A stretch of 41,792 nucleotides of DNA, taken from positions 1 through 41,792 of IMG/VR virus record IMGVR_UViG_3300044613_002570; one strand, 5' to 3'. The notes beneath the pieces are model-generated. The model searched no databases, was not told the origin of the DNA, and saw nothing but the letters and a program-made list of their open reading frames with translations. Source of the DNA: a virus (lineage: Duplodnaviria > Caudoviricetes). The stretch's first letter is position 1; each line of letters opens with the position of its first letter. Of this stretch, positions 10,441 to 41,117 are shown one piece after another. Made by a program: the position numbers and the translations under genes.

Positions 10441-10471
10441 GGTAAACGCCCCGTGTGCGTGATTGTTTATG

Positions 10472-23668: not shown

Positions 23669-24430
23669 TCAACGAATTTTGAATCCTGATCTCTGGATGG
23701 CCTGTCTCACCGCGCTGGCCCGTGGTGGAAGTCTTGCGATGCGTCCGCGCACCAGCAGATTGTTGTACTCGCCAAACAACAGTTCGAGAACACAACAACA
23801 ATGCGGATGCATTGGCGGTCCTGACGGCACAAATCGCGACCAGAAAGAATAGACTGTTCCATCGAGCAACGGGCACACGTCGCAATGCTGGCATGGCCGC
23901 GTTCTCCAGACCAGTTCGCACGCAACTCCAGCGTCAACGAGTTCGTGATAGATTGCAGAGACGGCGACGGATCGTGCTGCCGTCATTTCGGTGATCGAAA
24001 TCATTCTCGCCCGTGCAGTTGTGATGACGTCCTCTGGTGACGATCCGTTTGCGAGTCTGTTTTGCGTTGTGTTGCTGATCGACTCTGCGGCGAATCGTGC
24101 CCTGCGCTGCATTTCTTCAGCCGCACGTTGCTGAATAGCTGCTTCCGTTCTCTGGCGTTCTCTTTCGGACTGCTCAAGGTTCTGGATTTCCTCGAACGCC
24201 GTGTTCATCTGTGACAACGTATAGCCCAGCATCAGCGCCAGCAGCGCTGCGGCTTGTTCGTTCTCCCATTTCTTCCAGTGCGACGCCTTGACTTTGGAGA
24301 TATCTGGCGGGCTTCCGACGATCGCAACCAACTGCGATTTCTGTCTCTCGAAGAGTTTTTCAAACCGTTTTTCGAATTGCTTTGGCAATACTTTGCGGAT
24401 TTGCTTCAACTGCTGCTCAGCCGTTGGCAT
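23669..24430 (-). CDS. MuF / SPP1 gp7-like minor head protein (short form, no toxin extension)
   Basis: RARMISITE...WRT...CDVCPLLDG...PPMHPHCCC signature. Confidence 0.85.
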   Translation of the reverse strand: MPTAEQQLKQIRKVLPKQFEKRFEKLFERQKSQLVAIVGSPPDISKVKASHWKKWENEQAAALLALMLGYTLSQMNTAFEEIQNLEQSERERQRTEAAIQQRAAEEMQRRARFAAESISNTTQNRLANGSSPEDVITTARARMISITEMTAARSVAVSAIYHELVDAGVACELVWRTRPCQHCDVCPLLDGTVYSFWSRFVPSGPPMHPHCCCVLELLFGEYNNLLVRGRIARLPPRASAVRQAIQRSGFKIR

Positions 24431-24432: not shown

Positions 24433-25215
24433 CTAGTATCCTCCATCGAGTGTATCACTCAGCCCCAGCGCTCGATTCATCCATGCATCGTCGTCCTCAT
24501 CGTCGTCGTCCTCATCGTCGTCGTCGTCATCATCGTCGTCATCGTCGTCGATATCGATTGAGTATTCCGTATCGATCAACGCGCCGCCAGATTCCATGTC
24601 CAGCGTGCTCATGCCGTTGGCCTTACCAAACAACGCGGTGTCTGGCGTTGTGGCTCCGAATCGCATCGGCGAGTGTCCATAGAACGGGCAATCCCGCTCT
24701 TCAAGGGACGTGCCGACTTTCAGTTCGTTGATGATCCAGTCGACGCCGATGATGCCGGACGCTTTCAGATCATTCAGAACATGATCGTCGATGGTGATTT
24801 CTTCGAACGTCGCGACCACGATATACGGCGTGAACGACAGCGGCTCAATTGCGTAGGTTACGCTTGCTGCAAGCGACTGGTGAAGTTCCTGCAGGTCCGG
24901 ACAATCAACTGTGATCACCAGCGCTGTCTGCAGTTGGTTGATCCGTTTGGTATCGAACCGCATTGCGACCGCCCGCATAGGCGCCATACACGTAGCTATT
25001 TTTGCGATGTGGTCGATGCATTCGTCTAGGTCCGCGATTCCAGCGATGACTCCGATTCGCAGATCATCGTTGATTTTGGCGATCGGTATGGCCTGCACGA
25101 ACATCTGCTGCCAGCGCCGTATGGCGTCTTCGATTGTAGGTGGAAGCCTCACCCAAACAGATCCCTGTCTGGATGATTTCATTGCCAGCATTCGTTTGAA
25201 AAAAACGTCGCTCAT
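24433..25215 (-). CDS. 2H phosphoesterase-like protein with degenerate HxT/S motifs and poly-Asp tail
   Basis: Overall pattern (SVWVRLP...DLRIGV...LQELHQSL...FTPYIVVA) follows 2'-5' RNA ligase/Acb1-like 2H proteins, but Arg and Tyr sit where the two His are expected. Confidence 0.55.
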   Translation of the reverse strand: MSDVFFKRMLAMKSSRQGSVWVRLPPTIEDAIRRWQQMFVQAIPIAKINDDLRIGVIAGIADLDECIDHIAKIATCMAPMRAVAMRFDTKRINQLQTALVITVDCPDLQELHQSLAASVTYAIEPLSFTPYIVVATFEEITIDDHVLNDLKASGIIGVDWIINELKVGTSLEERDCPFYGHSPMRFGATTPDTALFGKANGMSTLDMESGGALIDTEYSIDIDDDDDDDDDDDDEDDDDEDDDAWMNRALGLSDTLDGGY

Positions 25216-25235
25216 GTTGCACCTGAATCAAAGAC

Positions 25236-25242
25236 GCATACG
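25236..25242 (-). promoter_or_regulatory. CGTATGC motif upstream of 2H-like gene
   Basis: Copy in a 42-bp intergenic gap. Confidence 0.5.
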
Positions 25243-25257
25243 GTCACTGCGAGAATG

Positions 25258-26130
25258 CTACCGAGTAGCCGCCTCATTCGCCAATACCGCGATGGCTTCT
25301 TTTGCCGTCGCACGGTGAATCGCCAGGACTGGCGTGATCTTTCCAGCCTTTGTGCGCTGGTAACCCCCTGCGAAGTTCCAGACGACTGGCAAGCCCAGTT
25401 CCATGCACCGGTCGAAGACGAAGCGATCACGTGCCTTCAGTTGAGCATCCGTCATCTGTCCACCGAGTGGATCATTGATATGCGGATCTGCCCCGGCCTG
25501 GTAAATCAGCAGTCCTACGCCGTCCGCTGCGGACTTTGTCAGGAACGCATCGATATCGAACAACAAGTCTTTCTGTCCTTCGGCGCCTCGATCGAATCTG
25601 TGCCCGCCGTACGTCCAGTGTTTCACTGTGTCCGTCAGTTCCAGCGTTTCGATAATATCTTCCGTGCCGTCACCATAGTGCTGATCGCAGTCCAGAATCG
25701 CGACCTTGCGGCACAACCCTTCGTTGATCACGGTCCGTGCGGCGACGATCAGCCCGTTGAACGTGCAAAACGCCCCGTTGTAACCATGGCCAGCGTGATG
25801 GAATCCGGACGTCGGAGAACAGACGATCCGGTTTTCAAACGCGGCTCGGCTTGCGGCGACCAAAGAACCGACCGTCACGCGGCAAGACTGCGTGACTTCC
25901 GGAATGCAATTGCCGTGACCGTTGGACTTCTGTCCTGCCAGAACTTTCTCGGCGAACTTTCGATCATGTGCAAGCGCCAGATCCTCGATCGTTGCGGCTT
26001 CGAACTCGCTGACGATCTCAATGTCCAGCCCGCGTTTCTGCCAGTCTGCAACACACTGCGCTGGCTTCTTTGCTGACGGTGAATAGCCGCCAGAATCCAC
26101 TGACATATCATCACGAAAAAATACCTGCAT
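25258..26130 (-). CDS. Zn-dependent histone deacetylase-family (AcuC/AphA-like) deacetylase
   Basis: SGFHHA, AFCTFN, ILDCDQHYGDGT, YQAGADPHINDPLGG, AGGYQ: catalytic His pair, Zn ligands and Tyr all present. Confidence 0.95.
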   Translation of the reverse strand: MQVFFRDDMSVDSGGYSPSAKKPAQCVADWQKRGLDIEIVSEFEAATIEDLALAHDRKFAEKVLAGQKSNGHGNCIPEVTQSCRVTVGSLVAASRAAFENRIVCSPTSGFHHAGHGYNGAFCTFNGLIVAARTVINEGLCRKVAILDCDQHYGDGTEDIIETLELTDTVKHWTYGGHRFDRGAEGQKDLLFDIDAFLTKSAADGVGLLIYQAGADPHINDPLGGQMTDAQLKARDRFVFDRCMELGLPVVWNFAGGYQRTKAGKITPVLAIHRATAKEAIAVLANEAATR

Positions 26131-26251
26131 CGCTACACCCCCCTGACTATGTTATTGAATCAACCAAACGAAAAAACGGGTGATTCGCATAATAGGTCTG
26201 CAGACCTATGATGACGTTTCACCCGAATTTCAGCGCGACAGTTTTTCGTTT

Positions 26252-26443
26252 TTACCGTGTTTTACCGGCAATTCGTGCGTCCGCCGCTCGTTCCATTTCG
26301 GCAACTTCGTCTGCGGAAAACGGATTGCCCTCATTCTGAGGTGCCTGCGTTTCCACAACTGTTGCGGCTTTGGCTTTCTGCCGTTCCTGGTACTTCGCTT
26401 CCTGTTTCGCCTGAACTCTTGCAATTACGTCTTTCAAAGCCAT
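26252..26443 (-). CDS. Small hypothetical helical protein
   Basis: GGGAG RBS before MALKDVIARVQAKQ; sits between a GNAT-domain gene and the deacetylase. Confidence 0.55.
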   Translation of the reverse strand: MALKDVIARVQAKQEAKYQERQKAKAATVVETQAPQNEGNPFSADEVAEMERAADARIAGKTR

Positions 26444-26528
26444 TTGTTTCTCCCGGTGAAATTGTCTGCGTTTTTGTCGCCATACCACTGATAACGAAAA
26501 AACCGTGCCAATGGATCAAAATTTTTTT

Positions 26529-28583
26529 CTATCTGCTCGATCTTTCGTTCAAATACCGTTCCAGAACCTGCATGCTACGCGATCCGTCGTTTAGGTCAAA
26601 GTCCATTGAAAGACTGCTGCCGTTGACGAACCAATAGTCTCGACCGCCTGGCGCGTCGAACAGATCCTGAATTGTTTCCACGTTGGGAAACTTCTGTCGG
26701 ATTTCGTCTTCCTGCCTTAGCCCTCGGATGTTGCGTTCGTATCCCAGAAGCGGCCACGTGTAGTAGCCGTTCATGCTCCCGCCCAGACTTCCTGCTGCAC
26801 TCACCGAAATATCTTCGAATTCCGCCGCTCTGGCTTGTCGGACCATCTGTGAGAAGATTTGTGCCCCCTCGCCTTTGTATTGCGAACCGGCTCGGAAGTA
26901 GGCCGCATAGATCGACTTCCCCGAGATTTCGCGTTCCATGCGAAGTCCGCCAGGTCCTTCGACTTCAATGCTGGTTCCGCTGACAGAGACTGTCGATCCT
27001 TCAGGTGCCCCCACGAATGACGCAGCATCGTCGATTCCCAGATTGCTGAGTTCGTACGAACTGCCTTCGCTGTCACTGTCGTAACCACCACCCTCCGCGT
27101 GTCCATAGTTTCTAGCCGCTTCGAACGACGAATCGGAATCCATGTTGTTCCATTCTTCGTCTGCGTACTCCTGCAGAACATCGTCATCGTTCATCATTTC
27201 TTCGACTTTGTTGTCGATCAGTTGTTCGACTCCGGACGTCCACGACTTCCCGCGCCTCCATGCTGCATAGATCTGGTCCGCAGCTTCATCATCGTCGATC
27301 TGAATAATCTCGGCGATATCATCTTCACCGGGGATGTTGACAACGCCTGGCTCTGATTGATTCAGCGACGCCGTCACCAGATCAATCAGTTCCTCGACCT
27401 TGTCGTTGTCCAAATCACCATCTTTCCAGGCTGCTGCACTGTCCGTCAATTTAATTCTGATGGACTCCAGATCGGCATCTGTCATTTCCTTGCCGATTTT
27501 CAGCCCGCCGTCAATGGCCTCTTTGACGGTACTTTCGATCTGGTCCGCGACTTCTGCCTGACCTACATCCAGATATTCCCAGTCGATATCCGGAAGCAAC
27601 TCATCCAGGTTTTCACTGATCACATCTTTCGTGTCAACGTTTTCACGGACTGACTCGCCTACCCATTCAAGGAAATCAGAGTCTCGCATGCGATCACTGG
27701 TCCAGTCTTCCTGCACCTGCGACTGCGTGTAGCTGTCCAGATCATCCCATGAACTCGGCCCACTCACGCCAACGTCGGCGCTGCTTGCTTTTAGTGGCAT
27801 CAGTTCATCGAACGACTTTTGTGCAGTCGGCTTGATCGCAATCGGCTTTTGCGCATCAGCCGGATTTTCCGCATAGTGCGCCCACAGCGCGGCTTTCTCA
27901 TCGAACTCTTTGGCTTTCTTGAAATACAACTCCCTGTCATCGTCCCCCATGACTCTGGAAATCAGGTTTGGATCGGTTTGCGTTTCTCGCTTGATTGGAA
28001 GCAAGTTCCAGAGTTTTTGGGCATCCTGTTCGTACTGCGCCGCGATCTCACTGGATCGCTGTTGCGTCATCGATCCTGCGGCATTATGGATCGCCGCTTT
28101 GGCCATCGGCGCCATCTGTGCTTTATCGATCGACTTCGGCGCGACCTTATGCATCAGCTTCACCGTCGCGCCTGTTGCCGCGTCAACGATTGCGGGCTTT
28201 TGTGGCTTCGGTGGCTTTGGTTCCTTGCCTGCTGCCTCACGTTGCTTCTGCATCGGTGACGGCTTCGGCTGCGGCTTTGGCTTTGGCGTGACCGGCTGTG
28301 CCTGCTGCGCGGGCTGTGCTGGCTTCTGCAGTGGCGCTGGCTTTCGCTTTGGAATCGCTGGCACTGTTCCGGCCTCTGGCTTCAAGCCCTGCGGCATGCG
28401 TCGCACGACCGGCCGTTCCTGCGCTGTGCCGTCATAGATCACGCCGTCGCCGTCGCCGTCGATCTCCTGCCCCGGACCGCCGCGTTTCTTCTTTCCCGGT
28501 GGACGCATACCGATCTTGCCAATCGCCTTGAGTGATTGCGCCTGTCGAAAGAACGAACTGGCGAAAGATTCATTGCCGGACAT
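26529..28583 (-). CDS. Multidomain head-associated protein: DGDGDG tag, Pro/Lys linker, acidic helical region, C-terminal GNAT-like domain
   Basis: YKGEGAQIFSQMVRQARAAEF...MNGYYTWPLLGY resembles GNAT acetyl-CoA-binding motifs A/B; paralog of the C-terminal ~680 aa of 28639..31878. Confidence 0.7.
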   Translation of the reverse strand: MSGNESFASSFFRQAQSLKAIGKIGMRPPGKKKRGGPGQEIDGDGDGVIYDGTAQERPVVRRMPQGLKPEAGTVPAIPKRKPAPLQKPAQPAQQAQPVTPKPKPQPKPSPMQKQREAAGKEPKPPKPQKPAIVDAATGATVKLMHKVAPKSIDKAQMAPMAKAAIHNAAGSMTQQRSSEIAAQYEQDAQKLWNLLPIKRETQTDPNLISRVMGDDDRELYFKKAKEFDEKAALWAHYAENPADAQKPIAIKPTAQKSFDELMPLKASSADVGVSGPSSWDDLDSYTQSQVQEDWTSDRMRDSDFLEWVGESVRENVDTKDVISENLDELLPDIDWEYLDVGQAEVADQIESTVKEAIDGGLKIGKEMTDADLESIRIKLTDSAAAWKDGDLDNDKVEELIDLVTASLNQSEPGVVNIPGEDDIAEIIQIDDDEAADQIYAAWRRGKSWTSGVEQLIDNKVEEMMNDDDVLQEYADEEWNNMDSDSSFEAARNYGHAEGGGYDSDSEGSSYELSNLGIDDAASFVGAPEGSTVSVSGTSIEVEGPGGLRMEREISGKSIYAAYFRAGSQYKGEGAQIFSQMVRQARAAEFEDISVSAAGSLGGSMNGYYTWPLLGYERNIRGLRQEDEIRQKFPNVETIQDLFDAPGGRDYWFVNGSSLSMDFDLNDGSRSMQVLERYLNERSSR

Positions 28584-30681
28584 ATTATTGCTTTCTGAGT
28601 TGAGTTTTCTTGTTGGAGAAATGCCAGCAATGGTTTTCTTACTTGTTGGCCTTTTCGTTCATATACCGTTCGAGCACTTTCATATTCCGCGACCCGTCAC
28701 TCAGATCGAAATCCATCGAAAGAGTGCTGCCGTTCACGAACCACCAGTCTCGACCGCCTGGCGTATCGAACAGATCCTGCATGGTTTCGACTCCCGGAAA
28801 GTTCTGTCGAATTGCGTTGCGTTCGCTGACGTCGTCGATGTCCGCTTCGTATCCCACAAGCGGCCACGTGTAGTAGCCATTCATGCCGCCACCCAGTTCG
28901 CCTGCGGCCGTTACTGAGATATCCATGAATCCGGCTTCTCTGGCCTGTCGCACCATCTGCGCGAAGATCTGCGCCCCCTCGCCCTTGTAACGTGAACCGG
29001 CATTAAAATTGGATGAATAGATCGACCCTTGGCTGATTTCTCGCTTCATGTACAGATCGCCGCGACCTTCGACGTTGATCGTAGTCCCGTCGACGGTCAC
29101 AGTTGACCCATCTGGTGCGCCTACGAATGACGCGGCGTCTTCGATTCCAAGTTCTCGAAGTTCCGGTGAACTGATGGTGCTTGACTGCTCTGAATACTCT
29201 TCCGCATGTCCATGATCTTTTGCGGCTTGCAGCATCGCATCATCGTCCATGTTGTCCCATTCCATCTCCGCGTATTCCTGCAGCGTGTCGTCATCGCTCA
29301 TTCTTGATTCGACTTCGTTATCGATCAAATCGTTGATGGCTTCCGACCGTCCTCGCTTCCAGATTTCATATAATTGGCTGACGGCATCGTCGTCGTCGAT
29401 CTGAAGGATTTCGGCGATATCGTCTTCCCCTGGGATATTGACAACGCCTGGCTCTGATTGATTCAGCGACGCCGTTGCCAGATCGACAAGTTGTTCTGCC
29501 GTCGCGTCGTCCAGGTCACCGTTCTTCCAGTCCAGCGAACTCTCCAGCAGACTCTTTCTGATGGACTCTAAATCGGCCGGTGTCATTTCCTTGCCAATCT
29601 TCAAACCATTTTTCATCGCCTCTTTTACTGTCTGTTCGATCTGGTCCGCGACTTCTCTTTGCCCAACATCCAGCTTGTCCCAGTCTGTTTGTGGCAACAA
29701 CTCATCCAGGTTTTCGCGGATGAGTTCTTCCGTGTCGATTCCTTCGCGGGTTGATTCGCCGACCCAGTTAAGGAAATCAGAGTCTCGCATGCGATCATTG
29801 ACCCAGTCATTTTTGACCCGTCGCTGCGTGTAGCTGTCCAGTTCATCCCAGTCGTAAACACCAGAACTCTGTCCGAAGTCAATATCCTCGCTGGTTTTCA
29901 GTGGCACCAGTTCATTGAACGACTTCTGCGGTGGTGTTTTGATATCAATTGGCTTTTGTGCATCGGCAGGATTTTCCGCGTAGTGCGCCCACAGCGCGGC
30001 TTTCTCATCGAACTCTTTGGCTTTCTTGAAATACAACTCGTAGTCATCATCGCCTTTGATTCTGGCCAGACTTGCTGCATCGTCCTGCTTGTCGCGTGAG
30101 ATTGGAATAATTCGCCAGACTTCTGCAGCGTTGTCTTCGTACAGCTTTGCCAGTTCACTGCAGCGCTGTGGCGTCATCGTCGCTGCGGCATTATGAATGG
30201 CCGCTTTCGCCATTGGCGGAATCTTGGCCTTGTCGATCGTCTTCGGCTTTACGGTATGCAATGCGGAAATCTGTTCGCCCGTATTCGGATCGACGATCGC
30301 TGCCTTTGGTGGCTTCGGTGGCTTTGCTTCCTTACCAGCCGCCTCACGTTGCTTCTGCATCGGCGACGGCTTTGGCTGCGGCTTTGGCTTTGGCGCTGGC
30401 GTTGGTGTCACCGGCTGTGCCTGCTGCACTGGCGGTTTTGGCTTCAGCTTCGGCATCGCTGGTACTGTTCCAGGCTCTGGCTTCAAGCCCTGCGGCATGC
30501 GTCGCACGACCGGCCGTTCCTGCGCTGTGCCGTCATAGATCACGCCGTCACCGTCGCCGTCGATCTCCTGCCCCGGACCGCCGCGTTTCTTTTTGACCGG
30601 CGACATACCGATCTTCCCGATGGCCTTGAGTGATTGTGCCCGCTGAAAGAACGAAATTGCTGACCGTTGATTGCCGGACAT
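26529..30681 (-). repeat. ~2.1-kb diverged tandem duplication (26529-28583 vs 28639-30681)
   Basis: Both units start MSGN..FF..AQSLKAIGKIGM and are collinear to the stop; e.g. 28380-28490 and 30481-30591 are nearly identical in DNA. Confidence 0.9.
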
Positions 30682-31878
30682 ATCACTGTCTGCCATCAGG
30701 CTTTTGGTTGTTGGCGCGATTTGCGAACCCCACTCACGACGCACTGGCGGCTGGTATATTCGGCGCGGCCTAGCGCCCGGATTTTTTTTCATCCATTCGG
30801 CTTCGACGTCTATGCCCAGCTTTTTACCGAGTGACGCGACAACGTTCAGCTTCCTGTCAGCAAATGGATCTCCAAGTCCGCGCGACCCTCTTGAATCGTT
30901 GTAGAAGTTGTGCAAGTATCCGACTGCGGCGGCGTGTTCCACTTTAGTCAAGGAATCACCCTTGAGAACTTTTCGCAGCGATTCGTGGCGCAGTGTTTGT
31001 TCCTGGCTCCACGGCACTTCATCCGGCCGCATGCGTTCAATCTTGTCCATCAGCCCGCCAATATAGTACGCCTCATCTTCACTTGGCTTTACGCCTGGAT
31101 GAGACTTGTCGACCGTGTGTTTTCGTGGCGCTGGCTGTTGCTGTGGTGTGCCGTCGAAGATAAGCCCGTCACCGTCGCCGTCCTTTAGTCCTGCAGCTTT
31201 GAACGTCACGTGTGACATTTTCATCTCCATGGCTCTGGTGAAAATTGCAGAGATAGCAACTGACTTGCTGAAATCTTTTGAACTATCAACCCATATATCT
31301 TCACTTTGAAAGACTGCGATCCACTGCATTGACGGAACAATCACGCCGTCATAGCCCTCGCTTTTGAGTCGATTCCTGAACTTAACGCCGTCCGATACTT
31401 CCAGTTCTTCCTCATACTGCAGGAATTCTTCTTCTTCCATCACGTAGGGTTTTCGAACTCTTGCAAACGCGCGCATAACCACGGCGTTAGGATTGTCTTT
31501 TTGGAAGAATGAAGCATCTCTGGCATTGTCGAAGAACCAATGCCCAAACGCTGCGGTTGCGACGCCTTCAGACTGATTGCCAAGACGTCTGTCATCGAAC
31601 TTTTCGAAGTCGAAATATGTGCCATGGAACAGCACTTTTGGTGAACCATCCTGATTCACGATTTTTGAACCCTCGAACCACTGTTTGAATTCCGGTGTTT
31701 GTGTCACCGCGTGTGATTCGTGATTGCTTAGCTGGTTCTCGTGCTTTGGCGCTGGCCGTTCCTGCGGCGTACCATCGAACACGACGCCGTCGCCGTCACC
31801 GTCTTTGATGGACTGTGATCGCTGTGCGGATGCGTATTGTGGGGCACCGAATGGCATGTGGCCAAACCTCGATGGCAC
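28639..31878 (-). CDS. Polyvalent protein: ART-PolyVal-like domain, unknown domain, acidic region, C-terminal GNAT-like domain, 3 DGDGDG tags
   Basis: TPEFKQWFEGSKIVNQDGSPKVLFHGT...GYDGVIV is the ADP-ribosyltransferase-like domain of phage polyvalent proteins; C-terminus YKGEGAQIF...NGYYTWPLVGY. Confidence 0.75.
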   Translation of the reverse strand: MPSRFGHMPFGAPQYASAQRSQSIKDGDGDGVVFDGTPQERPAPKHENQLSNHESHAVTQTPEFKQWFEGSKIVNQDGSPKVLFHGTYFDFEKFDDRRLGNQSEGVATAAFGHWFFDNARDASFFQKDNPNAVVMRAFARVRKPYVMEEEEFLQYEEELEVSDGVKFRNRLKSEGYDGVIVPSMQWIAVFQSEDIWVDSSKDFSKSVAISAIFTRAMEMKMSHVTFKAAGLKDGDGDGLIFDGTPQQQPAPRKHTVDKSHPGVKPSEDEAYYIGGLMDKIERMRPDEVPWSQEQTLRHESLRKVLKGDSLTKVEHAAAVGYLHNFYNDSRGSRGLGDPFADRKLNVVASLGKKLGIDVEAEWMKKNPGARPRRIYQPPVRREWGSQIAPTTKSLMADSDMSGNQRSAISFFQRAQSLKAIGKIGMSPVKKKRGGPGQEIDGDGDGVIYDGTAQERPVVRRMPQGLKPEPGTVPAMPKLKPKPPVQQAQPVTPTPAPKPKPQPKPSPMQKQREAAGKEAKPPKPPKAAIVDPNTGEQISALHTVKPKTIDKAKIPPMAKAAIHNAAATMTPQRCSELAKLYEDNAAEVWRIIPISRDKQDDAASLARIKGDDDYELYFKKAKEFDEKAALWAHYAENPADAQKPIDIKTPPQKSFNELVPLKTSEDIDFGQSSGVYDWDELDSYTQRRVKNDWVNDRMRDSDFLNWVGESTREGIDTEELIRENLDELLPQTDWDKLDVGQREVADQIEQTVKEAMKNGLKIGKEMTPADLESIRKSLLESSLDWKNGDLDDATAEQLVDLATASLNQSEPGVVNIPGEDDIAEILQIDDDDAVSQLYEIWKRGRSEAINDLIDNEVESRMSDDDTLQEYAEMEWDNMDDDAMLQAAKDHGHAEEYSEQSSTISSPELRELGIEDAASFVGAPDGSTVTVDGTTINVEGRGDLYMKREISQGSIYSSNFNAGSRYKGEGAQIFAQMVRQAREAGFMDISVTAAGELGGGMNGYYTWPLVGYEADIDDVSERNAIRQNFPGVETMQDLFDTPGGRDWWFVNGSTLSMDFDLSDGSRNMKVLERYMNEKANK

Positions 31879-31927
31879 CCCCGCGCCGATGGCTTGAATT
31901 CTATGAAATTATTCTGCGTTGTGAAGA

Positions 31928-32155
31928 CTAAGCTTCCGATGTGTTGTCTTCCGGGAACAACTCTTCGGCGAACCGATCGGATTCAATCATGTCTGCCATG
32001 CCCTCCTCGACATTGTTCTGGCCAATGTTGTACTCCTGACGTCGCTTCTCTGCATCTGCGTCGTAGGCTTCATCGAGTGCATCAAACATGTCATCAGTGA
32101 ACAGTTCTTCGTCTGACGGCTCTTTTGATTCTTCGTACTGCATCTGATACCTCAC
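31928..32155 (-). CDS. Small highly acidic protein
   Basis: 75 aa, roughly one third Asp/Glu; starts 6 nt after the portal-fusion stop. Confidence 0.6.
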   Translation of the reverse strand: MRYQMQYEESKEPSDEELFTDDMFDALDEAYDADAEKRRQEYNIGQNNVEEGMADMIESDRFAEELFPEDNTSEA

Positions 32156-32161
32156 TAGACT

Positions 32162-35100
32162 CTACGCTGTTGCTGTCGGGGCTGACGAACGAACTCGATC
32201 ACGCTGGCTTTTTTTCTTCTTCATATAGTTCTGTAGCGCTGTCATGTTACGCGATCCGGATGTCAGATCAAACTTGGCGGTGTTAAGTGAATCACCGTTT
32301 GCCCACCACCATTCCTGACCGCCAGGCGTGTCATAGATGTCACGGATCGTTCGCGCGTTGGGAAACTGCGCCTGTGTCCGCCGTCGCACTTCTCCGCTAC
32401 CGATGCTGGAGATATCAGCATCGTACCCGAACTGTGGCCAGACTGCATAACCAACCATCGTCGATGATCGGCATGGCATTGTCTTGACCTCTGCGAACCC
32501 CAGACGCTTTGCGTTTGCGATCGACTGAGAAAACACCTGAAGTCCCAGCCCCTTTGGTGCATTGTCGTCCATGAAGAACGAACTGTTGTAAAGTCGCATT
32601 TTACCATCTTCCATGTGGATCGAACGGCTCATTCTTGCCGTTGAATTATTCACGCTGATGCTCAACGATCCACCGTTGTAGTCTGATGGTGTGACTGTGA
32701 CCTGCCAGTCGTCTCGTGCTCCAATGACCGATGCCAGATCCTGCGTTGTCATCCCAAACTGATTCAGAAGTTGCGCGGTTCGTGGTGCATTCTGAGCACT
32801 CATCAGGTTCTTGCTTTGTGCGTGTCTATAGAGTTGTTCCGGCGAAACGTTATTGATGCGTTCGTTAACCGCTGCTGCATACTGACCACGCATCCATGAT
32901 CTTCGGCCGTCGAGCTTTTCAACCAACCCCATATTGACCGTGTCAAGTCGCCAGCGTTCTTTCGTCTGTGCGGCCAGTTCCTCTCCGGTGTCAAGCATGG
33001 CTTTAACATCTTCGACGGTGGCGTTTTCAAGTCCGACTCTGTTTCGCATTCGTGGAAGAATCGCGGTGGCCACCTGCTCAGAAGTCATTGCATCGAGTTC
33101 AGAATTGATTGCTGTTTTCGCCCGATCTCGGATTTCTACTCTCCATGCGCTTGACGTTTTCAGTGTACGTCGGACGTCCTGTGAATAGCTCTCTCTGATC
33201 CGTGACTGATCATCAACAGGAATTTCCTGCCATGACTGAGGAACACGTGCACCCGCTTCATTGATGACCACTCTGGCCCTGCTCGGAATCGCCTGAATCA
33301 GATTTCCATCTGCATCCGGCTCGATGTCGTCGAGGAAGTCCGCACCGATCTTCTTCAGTGCTGTTCGCTGCTCAGACGTCAAAGGTCCGCGTTGCTGTGG
33401 TGGCTGTGCTGCTAGTGGGCTTGTTGCCACTGGTGCCGGTGTCTGTGTCTGTGTCTGTGTTACGGCTGCTGGTTTCCTGCCTCGCACACGGCCCGCAACG
33501 ACGTCATCCGGATTGATCCCGCGATTGCGCAGTTGCGATTCGATCGCGCGGACCTGTTTGGCTGGATCGTCTGGCAACACTCGTGCTCTGTCGTTTGGAG
33601 TTACCAAAACAGTCTGGCCGTCTTCGTTTTGCGCGACAACAAACTTGCCTGGCAGATTCTGTTTCAACGCTGCCAGCCTCTGCTCTGCGGCGTTTCCTGT
33701 GCTTGTCGCTTCGCTTGCTGGTATTGCCGCTGTTGTTGCCGCTGGCGTTGACGGTGGCCTCAGCGAAAAGATTGGTCCGCCGAACTGTCGATCCCGTGCA
33801 ATGATGCGTCCTTCTATGGCCAAATTGCTCAACGCGCGATTCAGAGGACTGTTTAGCGGGGCATTGGCACTTCCCGGCTCTGTTTGTGTGAGTGTCGCCA
33901 GATCGCGCATCGTATAGTTTACTGCTGCGTTCTGTCTCATGGTTTCCAGAATCTGGTTTTCAATTGCAGTGATGCGCTGAAATTCTCGTGTTGCCCGAGA
34001 TTCATCTTGAACATGTTGGGCGATTGATCCCAACTGTGGTTCTTTGTTTCGAATAAAGTCTGTAAGCGCCTGGTGTTGCTCTGGCGACGTTCGATCAAAC
34101 ATGGACTGAATATCACCAGTTGTGATTTCGCGCTTCGCCAGCGTGAGATAATGCGATTCTGTGACGTCATCCCGCTGATTGTTCCCGACGTCGTTGACGC
34201 CCCGGAATCGGACGCTGCTGTTGGCCGCATCCATTCGTGCCTGATTTTCTCTGGCGCGATCCTGAATCTGCTGCTGTCGTGCCTCTTCACGGAATTGCTC
34301 GGCAATCGAACGTGCCTCTTCGTCGAGGCGATTCCCTTCGGCGATTTGATTCTTGGCTTCCGTCAATTGCCCTGCGGCTTCTCTCAGCGTGTTGGACATT
34401 CGTGCGTGACGCTCTGCGGCCTGCTGCTGGCCTACCGTCTGCATATCCCGGCTGACTGCCTGATTCTTATCCGCCGCCTGCACCAGTGCGTCCCTGCGTC
34501 GTCGCAGCGCATCGACGTCTCTGTCACGCGCTGCATTCGGTGACTTCCCGATGGCGGTGATTGCCGACCGTGCTGCCGCATTAGCGCGATCGGTGACAGT
34601 GGCTGCTGATCGATCGGCTCGGCGTCCTGAATCCATTCGCAGCGCCAGCTTGTCAACAAGTTCCTGTTTTGTTCGTCCGCTGGCCTTGAGATTGTATTTT
34701 AGCTTGATATCTCGAAGCTGTTTGACCGTGAGTTCCCGAAGCGACTCTGCCAGTTCTTTGGCGGACTTCGCGGACCTGTCACCGTTCAACGCCCGCTCAA
34801 CATCTGCATTGATCTGTGCGATGCGCTCCGGCGAATTCTTTGGCCGATTGCCACCGCGCCACTGCGGACGCCGTGGTGGCGCTGGCCGTTCTTCCGGCGT
34901 GCCGTCATGGATCACGCCGTCGCCGTCGCCGTCAATTTCCTCTGGCCGTGGTCGACGTGGTGATCGTCGGCGGCGGCTTGTCGCGTCCTTGAACGTCGCA
35001 TGTCCGGCGAACGCTTTTGCGAACGCTCCGGACAACGCTTCGAAATCATCGCCGTCATCCAGAATTGATTCCGCTTCCGTGCCGTAACATCCGACCAGAA

Positions 35101-38100
35101 TTTCGGCGATCAGCCTGTTTTTTTCCCGTGGATCATCCAGCGCGTCGTCGTCGCTGTCGTCATCGTCGTAGTCGTCGCTGCCGTCGTCGTCGAACGTTGG
35201 TTCGACTGGATCAACAGTGAACGTGCGGAAGAATCCGCCTGCTGGCGTGACGGCCTTTAGGAGTCTGTTTGTCCTGGCTTCGACGGCTTTGAGTTCTCGG
35301 TTGATGATTGCGGACGCTTTCCCCCGAAGACTATTGCCCCACCGCTTTTCAGCCAACTCGGCAGACCCTCTTTGACTGGTTCCCCCGGCTGCGGCTTGCG
35401 TTTGTTCTGATTGTTCATAGCCGTACTGATCCTTGCTGATGAAGACTGCATACCCATTAGCGTGTGTAGCTGATACGCCAAAGTTGTCCTGAATAGTTTG
35501 TGCGATTTCTCGGCCGCGTCCAGTGAAATCGACGATCATCATTTCATTTCCGATCGTCGTGTGGCCCTGCACGCTGTCATCGATCGCTCGGATTTTCATG
35601 TAAAGATCGTGCACATCCTGGCCGTTGTCCATCTGAACTGTGACGAAACCAACACTTTCGCCGCCAGCGATTGGCGTCGTGCTGATCCCCATCATGCTGT
35701 CCTGTGACAACGCGAATCCGGCTGCTTTCATCGTGCGGATGAATTTCTCCGGCTGCACGGCCCCCTGAAACTGTGCGGCGAATGATGGATTCGTGTCGTC
35801 CAGATATCCGCCCAACTGCTCAGAGACCGAGATATCGGCCCCGATGCGTTGTGCGACGTCTGGCATGATTGCGTCGACCAGCGTTCTGCTGATGCGCAGT
35901 CGGTCCTCATCCGTCAGATTTCTCCATCGGCTTGTCAGCATCAAGTCATTCGGATCAGGCGCGGCTTCAAACATCACGCGGCGCGTGTCATCGTCCTGCT
36001 GCGGTTTCTTCCTGCGTTTCAGTTCTTCCAGGCGATTCGGTGCCGGACGTTCCTGTGGCGTTCCGTCGAAGATCACGCCGTCCCCGTCGCCGTCTTTTTC
36101 GGTTTCGTTTTTCTTCGCAAACATCGCAGAGAACTGTGCTGACTTGCTCGATACCGCCCGCTCGAACATTGCGTCCGATGACAGACTGACATACTGCATT
36201 GCCCCCTCCGGATGCAACGCGCCTGCCAGTGGCCCGTTCTGCCCGTCGATCAGCCACTTCTTGAACTGCTCAATTGTCAGCGCGGCGACCGACATAATGC
36301 GATCGCTCCATTCGTCGTCGTAGTTCTGCAGATAGTGCTTGATCGCTTCAATCTTGGAGTCGCATCCGATGAAGCATTTATGCTCATCGAACGTGCCGTC
36401 TTCGTTGGCCTGATTGATGACATAAATCATGCCATTGAAATCAGGTTCTGTCCCGCGTTTGACGAACACGTCAAGCTGATCTTTGTCGAAGCCGACCGCA
36501 CCCACGATGTAGCCGTAGTGGTCCTGCATTTCAACAGCCCAGCGTGTTCCGTCTGGTCTGAGTCCTGATCGGACGCTGAACGCTGGATTTTCAATCTCGA
36601 TGATCAATCCGCAGAGTCGTAGACGTGCCTTGCGATACGTTCCCTCTTTCCTTTGCTGGTCTGACGGATCTCGCAGCATGTTCCCTGGATATGTTGCAGA
36701 AGCTTGTGCCTGTTCGTCAATCAACGACTTTGCCATGAATGCGCCGCCGCTGGCTTTGAATTCTGCCATCCGCGCGAACACCGCTGACGCTGTTGTTTGG
36801 TTGTCATTGCTTGACATAGATTCCTCTGCTCCAAGATCTTTGACCGAGTCGATGAACTCCTGCGCCATGTCTGTTGTGAGTCCCAATGTCTGCAGCATCA
36901 GTCGTGCAGTCTTTTCGCCGAATTTTCCGTCGCGATATTTCTCGACGATATCGCTGATGTTCTTGCTGTGTCGCATGAACTCACGGCGTGACATTTTGCC
37001 CAGCGATGGCGTTTCCATGGCCGGTGATGTTGTGACGCTTTGCAGCGTTTCTGGCGCGGCTTCTGGTGCACCGATGCCTGGCGTTTCTGGTTCCCCTGAA
37101 TCCGTCAGCGCGGTGTCGGTTCCTGTGTCCTCCGAGTCAGCGCCAGTCTCTTCCTCGTATCCGTAGCCCGCATATGGATCAGGCATTGCGCCGACCAGCT
37201 TGTCGTCTTCCTCGGTTCCGAGTGGCATCATGTTGAATGCCTCACGGACTTCGCGGACCTTGACGGCCTTGGATTTCATCAACAGATCCCATTCTGAACG
37301 GCGCTGCTCAGGATCGTCGATGTTGGCGGCTTGCAGAAGAACCATAAACTGATTCTGCGGCGACTGCATGAACCGGCGCAGGCCGATCGTCAACTGGCCG
37401 CTGTAGATTCGCATCAATGGTTGCAGGATGAGTCGTGCATTCCCTTTGATGAGTCCGACCACTTGTGCATACGAACCGCCAGAGCCAAGCCCCAGCATCG
37501 CTGAACTCAGCAAGTGCTGGCCCAGCGTGTGATCGCGGCTCTGGTCGACCGAATTCACGAACTCCATTTCTCGACCGGTATGGCTGTCGTTGGAGACTTT
37601 GATGCCAGGCGGTGATCGCCAGGCGTTGCCCTGCTTGTCCGGTCCAAGGTTCTGTGCTTCGAATTCTTCCAGCAGTTTTGACCACTCGGAATTGCTGATT
37701 GTGACACCAGGCATCGGCTCAAGCCGTGGCCCAGTGGTCATCATTTTTTCCAGCATGTTTCGTCTGGTCTGATGCAGCACTTTGTCAGTGTCTACCGTGT
37801 CTGCGATGGCGGACGAAACGTTCAGAAAATCATCCGAGAACATCGGCGACGGAAGCCCGATCGGAATGACGAACTTTGCCGAATACTCTCTGTTCGAAAT
37901 TCTGGCCAGCGCCTGTTGCAGACTTAGCGGCTCTTCCTCGCTTTGCGTATTGATTGAAAGCTTGCTCAGATGCCCGATTCGGTAGCTTCCTTCCGGAAAC
38001 TGTGACGACGGCGCGACGGCCTGAATGGCAGCTTTCGGAATCACCCACAATTCCTGTGGCATTCCGTTAGCGTTTGGAAGCACGAGAATATGCGCCACGC

Positions 38101-38569
38101 CGTGGATGTTCGTCTGCTCTGCGATCTCGAACAGAAACGTGGCTTCATCCTTCCAGGGATTCGGCGATCTCAGCAGTGCGGCAATTCGGTGTTGCGTTGG
38201 CGCTGTCACCCAGTCTTCAGGAACACCGTACTGCTCTGATCCGGTGATTCGCTTGCTGGCCTTGTATTCAATACCATTGTGCTCGCAGATGGCTTCTGCA
38301 ATCCACTGCGGGCAGTAGACGGCCATCGACCCCAGACCGAACTGCAGCGCTTTGGCAAGAATGGCGGTGAAGTTCCATCCTCGAACCTGCTCGATATCCC
38401 TGATTGCGGACGTTCCGATGGCGCTGTGCCCTGGCGATCCGAAGATATCCATCAGCGAATAATTGTCGAACCCTGTCCCGGAAAGCCCGTACGCTTTGAT
38501 CATTTCCGCGCCGACATTTTGTTCGGCCGTACGGTATTCCTGGATCAGTTTTCCAAGATCGATTTGCAT
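32162..38569 (-). CDS. Portal protein fused to a ~1650-aa polyvalent extension (InPase-like, unknown domain, SAP-like, wHTH, GNAT-like)
   Basis: N-terminal ~460 aa portal (LLRSPNPW, GVAHILV..NANGMPQELWVIP, REMEF, VREVREAFNMMPL); InPase-like (IENPAFSVRSG...HYGYI...DKDQLDVF...FDEHK); C-terminal GNAT-like (PKGLGLQVFSQ...VGYAVWPQFGY). Confidence 0.85.
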   Translation of the reverse strand: MQIDLGKLIQEYRTAEQNVGAEMIKAYGLSGTGFDNYSLMDIFGSPGHSAIGTSAIRDIEQVRGWNFTAILAKALQFGLGSMAVYCPQWIAEAICEHNGIEYKASKRITGSEQYGVPEDWVTAPTQHRIAALLRSPNPWKDEATFLFEIAEQTNIHGVAHILVLPNANGMPQELWVIPKAAIQAVAPSSQFPEGSYRIGHLSKLSINTQSEEEPLSLQQALARISNREYSAKFVIPIGLPSPMFSDDFLNVSSAIADTVDTDKVLHQTRRNMLEKMMTTGPRLEPMPGVTISNSEWSKLLEEFEAQNLGPDKQGNAWRSPPGIKVSNDSHTGREMEFVNSVDQSRDHTLGQHLLSSAMLGLGSGGSYAQVVGLIKGNARLILQPLMRIYSGQLTIGLRRFMQSPQNQFMVLLQAANIDDPEQRRSEWDLLMKSKAVKVREVREAFNMMPLGTEEDDKLVGAMPDPYAGYGYEEETGADSEDTGTDTALTDSGEPETPGIGAPEAAPETLQSVTTSPAMETPSLGKMSRREFMRHSKNISDIVEKYRDGKFGEKTARLMLQTLGLTTDMAQEFIDSVKDLGAEESMSSNDNQTTASAVFARMAEFKASGGAFMAKSLIDEQAQASATYPGNMLRDPSDQQRKEGTYRKARLRLCGLIIEIENPAFSVRSGLRPDGTRWAVEMQDHYGYIVGAVGFDKDQLDVFVKRGTEPDFNGMIYVINQANEDGTFDEHKCFIGCDSKIEAIKHYLQNYDDEWSDRIMSVAALTIEQFKKWLIDGQNGPLAGALHPEGAMQYVSLSSDAMFERAVSSKSAQFSAMFAKKNETEKDGDGDGVIFDGTPQERPAPNRLEELKRRKKPQQDDDTRRVMFEAAPDPNDLMLTSRWRNLTDEDRLRISRTLVDAIMPDVAQRIGADISVSEQLGGYLDDTNPSFAAQFQGAVQPEKFIRTMKAAGFALSQDSMMGISTTPIAGGESVGFVTVQMDNGQDVHDLYMKIRAIDDSVQGHTTIGNEMMIVDFTGRGREIAQTIQDNFGVSATHANGYAVFISKDQYGYEQSEQTQAAAGGTSQRGSAELAEKRWGNSLRGKASAIINRELKAVEARTNRLLKAVTPAGGFFRTFTVDPVEPTFDDDGSDDYDDDDSDDDALDDPREKNRLIAEILVGCYGTEAESILDDGDDFEALSGAFAKAFAGHATFKDATSRRRRSPRRPRPEEIDGDGDGVIHDGTPEERPAPPRRPQWRGGNRPKNSPERIAQINADVERALNGDRSAKSAKELAESLRELTVKQLRDIKLKYNLKASGRTKQELVDKLALRMDSGRRADRSAATVTDRANAAARSAITAIGKSPNAARDRDVDALRRRRDALVQAADKNQAVSRDMQTVGQQQAAERHARMSNTLREAAGQLTEAKNQIAEGNRLDEEARSIAEQFREEARQQQIQDRARENQARMDAANSSVRFRGVNDVGNNQRDDVTESHYLTLAKREITTGDIQSMFDRTSPEQHQALTDFIRNKEPQLGSIAQHVQDESRATREFQRITAIENQILETMRQNAAVNYTMRDLATLTQTEPGSANAPLNSPLNRALSNLAIEGRIIARDRQFGGPIFSLRPPSTPAATTAAIPASEATSTGNAAEQRLAALKQNLPGKFVVAQNEDGQTVLVTPNDRARVLPDDPAKQVRAIESQLRNRGINPDDVVAGRVRGRKPAAVTQTQTQTPAPVATSPLAAQPPQQRGPLTSEQRTALKKIGADFLDDIEPDADGNLIQAIPSRARVVINEAGARVPQSWQEIPVDDQSRIRESYSQDVRRTLKTSSAWRVEIRDRAKTAINSELDAMTSEQVATAILPRMRNRVGLENATVEDVKAMLDTGEELAAQTKERWRLDTVNMGLVEKLDGRRSWMRGQYAAAVNERINNVSPEQLYRHAQSKNLMSAQNAPRTAQLLNQFGMTTQDLASVIGARDDWQVTVTPSDYNGGSLSISVNNSTARMSRSIHMEDGKMRLYNSSFFMDDNAPKGLGLQVFSQSIANAKRLGFAEVKTMPCRSSTMVGYAVWPQFGYDADISSIGSGEVRRRTQAQFPNARTIRDIYDTPGGQEWWWANGDSLNTAKFDLTSGSRNMTALQNYMKKKKSQRDRVRSSAPTATA

Positions 38570-39340: not shown

Positions 39341-39428
39341 TGTCTTCCAATCCTTTGTTGAGTTCATTCATGCATCAGCGTAATTGCCTCCCGCTATTAC
39401 GCCGTCACTGACGCATGCATATTGATGA

Positions 39429-41117
39429 CTACACTTTTCCCATCTTCCAGTCTTCGAGTCCGTTGTAAGAGTGCGCCCCGGCGTCCACCTGATCGTCATG
39501 CGGCGCGTTCGGGAATCGTTCCAGTTCGTCGATGAAATCTTTGGTCCAGTCCTGTTCGTCCAGAATTCTGACTTCCCCGTATTTGACACCGGCCGCAAAC
39601 ATTGTGGCGCGTGCTCGTTTGTTCTTCGTGACCGGCTGCGCCATGCATACGATTCCGTGCGGCTTCAGTTTCGCGGCCAGGTAATTGTGCGCGAACTTGC
39701 CGTCTGGCCCCGGATTCACTTCGTTTGCCACTCGATAGTTGTCCCAGTTCTTCGAGTCGTACGCGGAAACTTTTTCGATCGTGTTGTCTCGATCGACCGC
39801 CGTTTTATTGAACTTCACCCTGTTGACGATGTACTTGATTCCCTCATACTCGACGGTCAAAACTCCAGCCGTTGGATCAAGATCTGATTCCGCATCGCTG
39901 TCGGCTCTGTCCCAGCCCCTGACGGCCATGCCATGCACCAGTTTTTTGGGCAGGTCTTCCGGCTTGATGAGTGCGCCCCGGACGTTCTCGAACAACGTCC
40001 CGGCTTTGGACATTGGATCTTGATCGAATTGTGCTGGAACGTTGGCCTGCTCTTTGTCCAGTTCCATCATCTTGATTCGATTTCTCACCACGGCTTCGGT
40101 GATCATCGATTCCCAGAGCAACTGGCCCTTTTTCGTTCGTGGATCTTTGTCCCAGCGATAGCGGTGATCCGGATCGAATCGCATCGGCAGACACGCATGC
40201 CGCCATTCAGACGACTGGAGTTCCTGCTTGAAGCTTTCTGGCATATCGATTGCGCCGGAAAGCATTTCGCCCAGCAGCATTCCGCAGATATCGTTTGTTG
40301 CCAGTCTCTGCATGCAAACAACGATCGACATTTTCTGCAGCATACCGCGACTGGCGACCGTTGACGCAAACCAGCGAATCGCTTTTTTCATCAGCTTTGT
40401 TGAATACACGTCCAGCGCTTTGTGCGGATCGTCGACCAACAGGAAGTGCGGATGCAAACCTGTCAACGGTCCGCCGACCGTCCCCATAAATCGAGTTCCG
40501 CCACGACTGTTGACGATGCCTTCCTTTTCATTATCGCGGACGATTCGCAGACGGCCGAAACGCTTCTGATACCATTCGGACGTGATCAGGTTGACGAATG
40601 CGGTTTTCGGTGCCTGCATCGGCTCTTCGGCGTAACTGCTCAGCACGAATCGCCGTGTCGGATCTTTGGCCCAGACCCAGGCCGGAAAAAAGACATTCAG
40701 CAGATAGGACTTCATCGTGCCTGGCGGCTGATTGACGATCAGTCTGTCATTGCGGCCATAGAACAGATCTTCGTATTCCTGCGCCAGCAGATCGATATGG
40801 AAGTTTCCGGCGAATGGATTCGGATCTCTGATGTATCGCCAGGCGCGGCGCGTAAAGCCCGCCAGACTGGAAAGAATCTGCTCTGGCGAATCATCGTATT
40901 CGCGCTGTCGCTGTCGCAGTTCCGGCTGACGCTCAAACAACTGTCGCAGCGATCGGCCGTCACACTCCCGGAACATTTCGAAATCGTCATCGTTGACGTC
41001 TTCCGGATGAGTGTAAAGGTGCCTGATTCTCCCCAACGCATCTTTCTTCCGCTTGAGTTTCTTCTGCGCTTCGGCGTACAGCAGCATTCGCATGTACGGA
41101 TCAAGAAGTTCCGGCAT
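39429..41117 (-). CDS. terL: Terminase large subunit
   Basis: Walker A VNQPPGTMKS, Walker B LLVDDPH, coupling motif VCMQRL, nuclease GWDRA and PHDDQVDA. Confidence 0.95.
   Translation of the reverse strand: MPELLDPYMRMLLYAEAQKKLKRKKDALGRIRHLYTHPEDVNDDDFEMFRECDGRSLRQLFERQPELRQRQREYDDSPEQILSSLAGFTRRAWRYIRDPNPFAGNFHIDLLAQEYEDLFYGRNDRLIVNQPPGTMKSYLLNVFFPAWVWAKDPTRRFVLSSYAEEPMQAPKTAFVNLITSEWYQKRFGRLRIVRDNEKEGIVNSRGGTRFMGTVGGPLTGLHPHFLLVDDPHKALDVYSTKLMKKAIRWFASTVASRGMLQKMSIVVCMQRLATNDICGMLLGEMLSGAIDMPESFKQELQSSEWRHACLPMRFDPDHRYRWDKDPRTKKGQLLWESMITEAVVRNRIKMMELDKEQANVPAQFDQDPMSKAGTLFENVRGALIKPEDLPKKLVHGMAVRGWDRADSDAESDLDPTAGVLTVEYEGIKYIVNRVKFNKTAVDRDNTIEKVSAYDSKNWDNYRVANEVNPGPDGKFAHNYLAAKLKPHGIVCMAQPVTKNKRARATMFAAGVKYGEVRILDEQDWTKDFIDELERFPNAPHDDQVDAGAHSYNGLEDWKMGKV

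Follow-up and report, generated by a model that had tools for sequence, protein, structure and literature searches.

The question raised by this locus is what three acetyltransferase-like domains and an enzyme of the histone deacetylase (HDAC) family are doing side by side among the head genes of a tailed phage. The locus lies in record IMGVR_UViG_3300044613_002570 of a virus of the Caudoviricetes (positions 1 to 41,792; this whole stretch of 41,792 nucleotides is referred to below as the window), in which three large genes, here P1, P2 and P3, each end in a domain resembling the GNAT acyltransferases and are followed by a gene for a putative Zn-dependent deacylase. The original prediction took these genes for a writer/eraser pair, in which virion-delivered acetyltransferases modify a host target and the deacetylase reverses the modification, conferring self-immunity during assembly or temporal control. 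In the analysis described here, a small acidic helix was found to be coupled to the GNAT family, and the small protein that carries it is a better immunity candidate than the HDAC, while the pairing of GNAT and HDAC genes, as judged from sequence comparisons, appears recurrent and convergent but optional. The elements concerned, some of which carry a repeated sequence beginning with D-G-D-G-D-G (the DGDGDG tag), are as follows.

32162..38569, minus strand: P1 (2135 aa), a fusion of portal protein and InPase with two DGDGDG-tagged segments and a C-terminal GNAT-fold domain; a polyvalent protein
32195..32770, minus strand: GNAT-fold domain 1, at the end of P1 (family motif A with G74/G76, and GY.W)
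31928..32143, minus strand: 71-aa acidic open reading frame (ORF) right after P1, with a degenerate acidic-helix partner motif and GAGG before its ATG; candidate inhibitor
28639..31878, minus strand: P2 (1079 aa), an ART-PolyVal ADP-ribosyltransferase with three DGDGDG tags, an acidic middle region and C-terminal GNAT-fold domain 2
about 28642-29150, minus strand: GNAT-fold domain 2, at the end of P2 (AlphaFold2 model and fold searches)
26529..28583, minus strand: P3 (684 aa), a copy of the last two thirds of P2, with one tag and C-terminal GNAT-fold domain 3
about 26532-27040, minus strand: GNAT-fold domain 3, at the end of P3 (motifs and homology)
26252..26443, minus strand: 63-aa ORF between GNAT domain 3 and the HDAC gene, probably a strongly degenerate partner (38% identity to the ORF in the same place of metagenome locus L251)
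25258..26130, minus strand: putative Zn-dependent classical deacylase (290 aa; Pfam PF00850, E 5e-27), HDAC11-like (cluster-5 type), without the tag

Motifs and alignments confirm that P1, P2 and P3 all terminate in a homologous domain of ~170-190 aa, at the places originally given for it. Domain identity is 37% between P1 and P2, 34% between P1 and P3 and 69% between P2 and P3, and the motifs KG[EL]G, GY..WP and PGG..[WY]W lie at nucleotides 32554, 32452 and 32326 in P1, 28986, 28878 and 28761 in P2, and 26876, 26768 and 26651 in P3. P3 as a whole aligns with P2 (68% amino acid identity over 690 columns, 74% DNA identity) and arose by duplication of the final two thirds of that gene, so that the three copies stem from two lineages. 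The three genes had been called consecutive, which holds for their order in the head cassette and not in the strict sense, because the 71-aa and 63-aa ORFs intervene. An AlphaFold2 (AF2) model built from a 22-row alignment has a mean predicted local distance difference test (pLDDT) of 90.7; the best Foldseek matches in the PDB are GNATs (E 5e-4, TM score about 0.4), and in a VIA fold search every one of the 50 rows is an acyl-CoA N-acyltransferase fold (best Z 8.6, root-mean-square deviation (rmsd) 4.3, 126 aligned residues), with RimI among the matches and tied with many others. The predicted GNAT fold is thereby established at the level of sequence and structure computation, as the original prediction had expected, while the middling scores and the fact that no subfamily stands out mean that the fold is supported and a substrate is not. 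In motif A (Q/R-x-x-G-x-G) the window domains read K-G-E/L-G where their relatives read Q-G-x-G-x-G; the glycines of this motif and an invariant G-Y-x-x-W-x-x-x-G are retained in all three copies, and it is very probable that all three are GNAT enzymes, as the models predict.

The family to which these domains belong is large, with 2,895 representatives at E 0.001 and 1,946 at E 1e-10, the best 150 of which were inspected for copies and fusions. Half of them (75/150) hold 2-4 GNAT copies, so that three copies are ordinary for this family; the triplication that the original prediction had found notable stands as a count, with P3 being a duplicate of P2, and loses its exceptional character. In several relatives the domain is joined to a portal, MuF, InPase or ADP-ribosyltransferase (ART) domain. 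Each motif-A glycine is present in 48 of 50 rows, and Pfam acetyltransferase models are matched by 4/50 family members. A sister subfamily (HHalign 97.9%) shows G-x-Y-A-W-A-x-Y-G-F in place of N-G-Y-Y-T-W-P, and in cultured phages (7 records) its domains form part of proteins annotated as minor head or capsid-maturation proteins, with Microbacterium phage Jera and Alteromonas phage R7M among the carriers; no subfamily-1 GNAT was found among 50,697 annotated phage records. A fusion of an HDAC to this family was encountered neither among the 150 representatives nor among 11 longer HDAC relatives. In three of the latter (P0278, P0279 and P0281), the N-terminal part, joined to a related HDAC, resembles a GNAT on visual inspection; as members of the family such parts were rejected, the one tested giving no match (HHalign 0.2%).

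Behind GNAT genes of this family stand small, translationally coupled, acidic ORFs, which in subfamily 1 share the motif L-T-x-E-(D/E)-E-x-x-L-D-x-x-W. The motifs are subfamily-specific, as they were found in 30/99 cases versus 0/520 controls for subfamily 1 and in 13/30 versus 1/520 for subfamily 2, with no cross-matches, the 30/99 and 13/30 patterns having been picked after the data were seen. A profile trained on 30 examples was applied to 97 held-out domain clusters and 413 control windows, and detected the partner motif within 330 nt after 40 of the 97, as compared to 3 of the 413 (Fisher p 5e-29). The acidic helix is thus coupled to the GNAT family, and it takes more than one form. In 30 of the 150 proteins the motif occurs within the same chain, and 40 of the 43 such matches lie 3-42 residues past the GNAT end. 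Where the GNAT domain is internal to a polyprotein, the motif is encoded by overprinting in a different frame and has an ATG of its own in 5 of the 7 cases viewed. These overprinted genes, in the +1 or +2 frame, are found at L190:10473-10676, L193:8740-8829, L244:9127-9258, L256:2620-2736 and L186:10422-10664, as well as in L188 and L278; their start coincides with the last, conserved Tyr of the GNAT domain, and they form a recurring nested gene or frameshift product in head genes.

The AF2 model of a natural GNAT-helix fusion gives the helix a pLDDT of 92-93 and the linker, which is disordered, one under 50; this model fits docking of the helix and does not show it, and a fold search with the fused model did not reveal a part of a known structure that the helix imitates. 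In the window itself, the 71-aa ORF has 25 acidic versus 5 basic residues and carries the motif in register, with Y in place of W, its 7.8 bits being the third highest of 51,189 window positions with a profile made from other loci; this score is reached by 5 of the 413 control windows. The 63-aa ORF has a homologue in L251 that, at 9.4 bits, is the best-scoring position of its contig. Both small ORFs are preceded by a ribosome-binding-like site, and neither is matched by Pfam, PHROG or NCBIfam models. No partner ORF is found behind P2, nor was the subfamily-2 motif detected behind the GNATs of L070, L079, L085, Jera and R7M, a likeness in L070 and L079 being visible by eye only. A complex prediction of GNAT domain 1 with the first 46 residues of the 71-aa ORF, from 50-row alignments, scored 0.02 against a mark of 0.32 and, as controls were not folded, is evidence neither way. 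On balance, there is a slight preference for regarding the helix as an inhibitor.

The deacylase is predicted to be intact, as originally claimed, and to reside in the head cassette. Its PF00850 score is 95 bits versus a cut-off of 27.9, and H111-H112, D149, H151, D215 and Y257, i.e. the double His, the Asp-His-Asp Zn ligands and the Tyr of GGY, are invariant in a 44-row alignment; the tag count is zero, also as claimed. The label "deacetylase" fares less well, in that acetyl specificity is not assured. According to the available part of PMC11532494, RPPxHH marks robust deacetylases and polyamine deacetylases (clusters 1, 2 and 4); by that rule the enzyme, in which RPP is missing, would not be a robust deacetylase, and the acyl group that it removes need not be acetyl. 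Its closest solved relatives are 9rje and 9gkv (top two E 4e-21 and 9e-15, 9gkv second). Cluster-5 affinity is suggested by the absence of RPP and by 9gkv as a top match, but the motif is TSGFHH instead of GGGxHH. The enzyme nests among Planctomycetota proteins (support 97, quick tree, 30/175 rows), a weak pointer to a planctomycete-type host. Members of its clade are common among viruses (167 and 199 matches), where the genes lie mostly in replication regions or behind tail genes; one of them is annotated, gp202, in the cultured Rhodococcus phage E3.

Do the two enzymes travel together? For this comparison, 122 other GNAT-bearing virus records were fetched, the seed records of the sister profile being set aside, and 114 were searched whole (the 8 left out were mostly near-duplicates, with no HDAC in their flanks). 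An HDAC was found in 0/14, 1/50 and 1/50 of these records, at distances of 256 and 29 kb, and in 1 of the 18 that are at least 90% complete. Among metagenome GNAT loci, many of them shorter than 2 kb, 1 of 56 (L251, 1.2 kb) repeats the window order of GNAT, small ORF and HDAC, its GNAT being 40% and its small ORF 38% identical to those of the window. Starting from the HDAC, a GNAT of the family was seen in the fetched flanks of 4 of 87 other viral loci: in L070 the HDAC start overlaps the stop of the GNAT gene, between MuF and protease in a head operon; in L079 the HDAC lies 1.4 kb downstream of the GNAT, in a cassette of Acb1-ART, GNAT, RelA/SpoT and HDAC; and in the related L082 and L085 a convergent HDAC faces the GNAT plus a small ORF. 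Two further pairs, weak and distant, came from searching HDAC records whole (50 with one GNAT profile, 49 with the other and 12 with both). Besides the window's own, 3 of the 7 lineages with both genes have them adjacent, for which random placement gives about 0.012, a rough estimate that draws on 7 lineages only, takes no account of hot spots and may miss some distant pairs. The adjacent HDACs do not form one clade (4 changes, at least 3 of them forced; approximately unbiased test p-AU 3e-66, with the same quick tree of 30/175 rows). Hence, the co-occurrence anticipated by the original prediction fails as a general rule (2/114 records, both distant) and survives as a recurrent adjacency: the HDAC is not a general partner of the GNAT family, and the comparisons support a non-random tendency of phage HDACs to adjoin that family.

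Several arrangements were seen next to these loci. In L079 the compact conflict cassette (4160-10762) consists of an Acb1-ART fusion, a multi-domain GNAT protein, a RelA/SpoT synthetase and the HDAC, with a common repeated tag, and a second GNAT protein lies 31 kb away in the same record. In L082 (11226-15521) and L085 (11280-15491), the protease-scaffold-capsid genes have the opposite orientation to the InPase and GNAT genes, and the HDAC is inserted against the latter two. A clade of large phages (L044, L046, L056, L057, L074 and kin) has the HDAC directly behind the tail sheath and tube genes. In L089, L091, L092, L095, L345, L347 and L350 the viral HDAC follows an HD-domain gene and precedes a conserved ~400-aa gene of no family; the latter was tried as a member of the GNAT family and rejected (HHalign 0.6%, no match).

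The reading that is favoured here, tentatively and with somewhat less than even confidence, is one of virion-delivered acyltransferases that are held in check mainly by acidic-helix partners, with the HDAC as an optional eraser. Every functional step in it is one that we infer. The three domains, predicted to be acyl-CoA-dependent, would be packed into the head and injected, P2 and P3 being packaged presumably through the DGDGDG tag, which the HDAC lacks, and P1 entering the virion via its portal fusion; virion delivery as such is likely. Once injected, the domains would acylate a host protein early in infection, the target most likely being a lysine in a protein of host defence or gene expression, by analogy with the phage GNAT AcrVA5. 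During late synthesis, the helix partner encoded right behind the GNATs would likely hold the enzymes inactive in the producing cell. The HDAC, likely taken from a planctomycete-type host and untagged, would remain behind in the cell and serve, in some lineages, as an optional eraser that removes leftover or escaped acylation or ends the early state; that it acts on the GNAT product is judged an even call. The degenerate state of two helix partners and the lack of one for P2 may be why the eraser was kept. A more ambitious version, in which a reversible acylation switch made up of a virion writer, an acidic-helix inhibitor (as a gene, an overprint or a fused tail) and an HDAC11-like late eraser was assembled at least three or four times independently, is doubtful; in it, the acyl chain would possibly be longer than acetyl.

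Several observations weigh against this proposal. On the side of the GNAT domains, the fold-search scores are middling and the window copies have no match in Pfam, PHROG or NCBIfam models. As for the partner, its motif was not found after 57 of the 97 held-out domains, it is weak in the 71-aa ORF of the window and does not score in the 63-aa ORF, and an inhibitor fused in the same chain would require cleavage to free the enzyme. The HDAC reads P-T-S-G-F-H-H, which departs from RPPxHH. The pairing itself is sparse, in that 112 of the 114 GNAT-bearing records, many of them fragments, have no HDAC, nor does either of the two planctomycete loci fetched, while no GNAT of the family was found in the fetched flanks of 83/87 other viral HDAC loci or in the flanks of 80/80 genome HDAC loci. 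All four adjacent cases belong to the sister subfamily, four records with both genes have them 29-256 kb apart, and the chance estimate for adjacency carries the restrictions given with it. Finally, HDACs also occur in structural modules without a detected GNAT, as in L031 (between scaffold and capsid), in L072 (facing an LPD38 protein) and in several loci behind tail-tube genes.

The main rival, itself rather doubtful, holds that the GNATs and their helix partners form a complete module and that the HDAC is unrelated cargo in a variable portal-MuF hot spot, deacylating a host protein or a small molecule. It draws on the frequency of the HDAC clade in viruses, mostly in replication regions or behind tail genes, on the rarity of the HDAC among GNAT records, on the convergent orientation in L082 and L085, which fits insertion, on the long-chain-type foot-pocket motif of the enzyme, and on phage E3, which has gp202, yet belongs to a phage collection in which no subfamily-1 GNAT was found. 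What speaks for a functional link instead is direct adjacency in four HDAC lineages, the start/stop overlap in L070, the conserved order in L251 and the low chance of adjacency in 3 of 7 lineages under random placement, a model that leaves hot spots outside. A second alternative, that of the original prediction, makes the HDAC the dedicated self-immunity or timer of the three GNATs in a two-component writer/eraser system, and is consistent with the shared operon, the untagged HDAC, the repeated adjacency, the lack of a partner behind P2 and the degeneracy of the other two. It is nevertheless quite unlikely, as most GNAT carriers have no HDAC, the HDAC-adjacent L082 retains an intact partner motif, and the window and L251 retain their small ORFs; as the self-immunity of the GNAT family, the HDAC is not supported by the records searched, and the small helix protein had been missed.

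Also improbable is the idea that the helix acts as a subunit with an activating or structural role, or as a signal for maturation, with the GNATs acting on a small molecule or on virion proteins (e.g. polyamines during packaging) and the HDAC recycling the product. The frequent fusion of the helix in the same chain, where it is predicted with high confidence, would suit such a role, and spermidine acetyltransferases and acetylpolyamine amidohydrolases (APAHs) are encoded by viruses according to the available text of PMC9992855. Yet more than half of the domains have no helix, an overprinted gene with a start of its own fits expression as a protein apart, the HDAC is only distantly similar to APAH enzymes (E 1e-8 versus 4e-21 and 9e-15 for the top two) and lacks RPP, and the APAHs of PMC9992855, within that text, all come from giant eukaryotic viruses. 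Very improbable, lastly, is that the domains have kept the GNAT fold as non-catalytic binders of acyl-CoA or proteins, for which the missing family-model matches and the departures of the P1 domain from the family consensus at N106, Y109 and R113 might be cited; the motif-A glycines and the G-Y-x-x-W-x-x-x-G kept in all three copies, and the size of the family (1,946 representatives at E 1e-10), argue against it. The favoured reading of inhibitor-held, virion-delivered acyltransferases can be set against several described systems.

The closest of these are the polyvalent proteins, for which GNAT, ART, InPase and 2H domains were described in such cassettes and argued to be packaged (Iyer et al. 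2017, PMC5512222, in the passages available). The window resembles them in its late-gene cassette beside portal and MuF, with an InPase-portal fusion, ART-PolyVal, 2H and GNAT, and one of the two GNAT families in the accessible text of PMC5512222 typically neighbours ART in one chain, as it does in P2; the family of the window may be one of those two RimI-like families. In contrast, "deacetylase", "HDAC" and "DGD" are absent from the main text of PMC5512222, and no partner of the GNATs is described in the "immunity" passages covered (12 of 17). The cassette type and the GNATs within it are thus already known from that paper as far as it is available, so that the claim that this is not a described system stands only for the phage GNAT-HDAC pair, which was not found in the open-licence literature. 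Small ORFs behind MuF toxins (89% of 191) have been proposed to confer immunity (Jamet et al. 2017, PMC5576092, in the part available), and P1 and P3, though not P2, show a similar layout, in which a small ORF comes directly after the C-terminal enzyme domain of a head protein. The window differs in that its carriers are portal and tagged proteins with MuF stand-alone, and in that the partner in the GNAT family can be fused or overprinted; "Acetyl" is absent from the main text of PMC5576092.

Among phage acetyltransferases, AcrVA5 acetylates Cas12a, and its acetylation is undone by the host CobB, according to the accessible text of PMC9114340. AcrVA5 shares the GNAT fold with the window domains (Z 7.1, rmsd 2.8, 89 aligned) and the reversal of its acetylation by a deacetylase, whereas it is a 95-residue stand-alone chain, is 16% identical, and has as its eraser a host sirtuin and not a phage Zn-dependent enzyme. 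As for the HDAC, VcHdaH of Vibrio cholerae is a cluster-5 de-decanoylase with an SGGYHH motif (Graf et al. 2024, PMC11532494, in the available text). The window enzyme is like the cluster-5 deacylases (V. cholerae HdaH, HDAC11) in its match to 9gkv, which shows SGGYHH, and in its intact double His, Asp-His-Asp and GGY-Tyr without RPP, and unlike them in reading T-S-G-F-H-H rather than GGGxHH, in its compact 290 aa and in being phage-encoded; the word "phage" is absent from the PMC11532494 text available. It belongs to the same enzyme family as gp202 of phage E3, a "putative histone deacetylase" by annotation only, with 32% identity. The tRNA-acetylating TacT and AtaT likewise have a GNAT fold (Z 6.7-7.2) and a small protein partner. 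Their antitoxins are upstream ribbon-helix-helix repressors, whereas the partner of the present family is downstream and acidic, with about 20 conserved residues, and the enzyme lies within head proteins.

The open-licence literature yielded no phage GNAT-HDAC pair, no cognate acidic-helix partner and no repeated HDAC recruitment. If the favoured reading holds, the effectors injected by phages would be enlarged by a big family of acyltransferases (about 1,900-2,900 cluster representatives) that travel in the virion and lack annotation, a 20-residue cognate inhibitor would be named for this family, and phage HDACs, common as they are in viral contigs, would gain a first functional context. A phage-encoded writer with a Zn-dependent eraser would show timed control of a reversible host modification, beyond mere attack, and the cultured carriers of the sister subfamily (Jera and R7M) make the writer directly testable.

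The location in a head operon, as claimed originally, is borne out by the minus-strand order of terminase, P1, P2, P3, HDAC, 2H-like gene, MuF, probable protease and capsid gene, i.e. a cassette of the polyvalent-protein type with Portal+InPase+GNAT and ART-PolyVal+GNAT between terminase and MuF/capsid. Pfam places Phage_portal at aa 125-446 and InPase at aa 638-773 of P1, and ART-PolyVal (PF18760) at aa 75-195, the start of P2. The remaining features of the cassette and its surroundings are as follows.

39429..41117, minus strand: large terminase (context; Pfam Terminase_6C, E 2e-4)
24433..25215, minus strand: 2H-phosphoesterase-like protein with a poly-Asp tail (ESM Atlas features 0.93 to LigT/2'-5' RNA ligase clusters)
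23669..24430, minus strand: MuF minor head protein, which closes the cassette (Pfam PF04233, E 0.002, under the cut-off; PHROG head-morphogenesis matches to E 2e-11)
21777-23501, minus strand: probable prohead protease/scaffold, from its position, with no family match
20314-21687, minus strand: major capsid protein (Pfam Phage_capsid, E 1e-27)

The 2H-like gene is another domain type of polyvalent cassettes; its product has no Pfam match, its His motifs are not evident, and it is possibly an inactive Acb1-like nucleotide binder. It carries a run of about 25 Asp/Glu. The tag occurs twice in P1, three times in P2 and once in P3, and the six copies, D-G-D-G-D-G-x-I/V-x-D-G-T-x-Q-E-R-P, open modules at 36094, 34933, 31803, 31182, 30561 and 28460 on the minus strand. 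These are candidate capsid-targeting or processing signals. A tag of the DGDGDG type was found in only 7 of the 150 GNAT relatives, and different repeated tags take the same role in L070, L079 and L403.

A near-identical record of 51.8 kb is rated 43% complete, so that the phage is probably about 120 kb in size. The window sequence is carried by lake-water metagenomes (6 runs with at least half of its words, 2 of these being possible sources). In an independent lake run, a single contig with 28 differences spans 24521-26849, i.e. the end of GNAT domain 3, the small ORF and the HDAC, and the junction is therefore not an assembly artefact. Contigs of four runs, three of them too shallow, showed no credible loss of the HDAC or P3; no RNA run was among the sequencing runs listed as holding the window sequence, and a promoter and terminator scan showed no excess over shuffles. 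Strain differences in run X3 cluster at 26742-26802 and 27774-27792; of the 22 alleles listed, 9 carry the P2 base and concentrate near 27774-27792, while most of those in the GNAT part do not carry it, and a possible explanation for the differences near 27774-27792 is exchange between the duplicated P2 and P3 genes. Elsewhere in the window, a CsrA-like gene lies at 39068-39367, between terminase and portal (Pfam E 6e-6, just under the cut-off), and a glycosyltransferase family 2 protein at 2072-3910, at the end of the tail module (E 9e-29).

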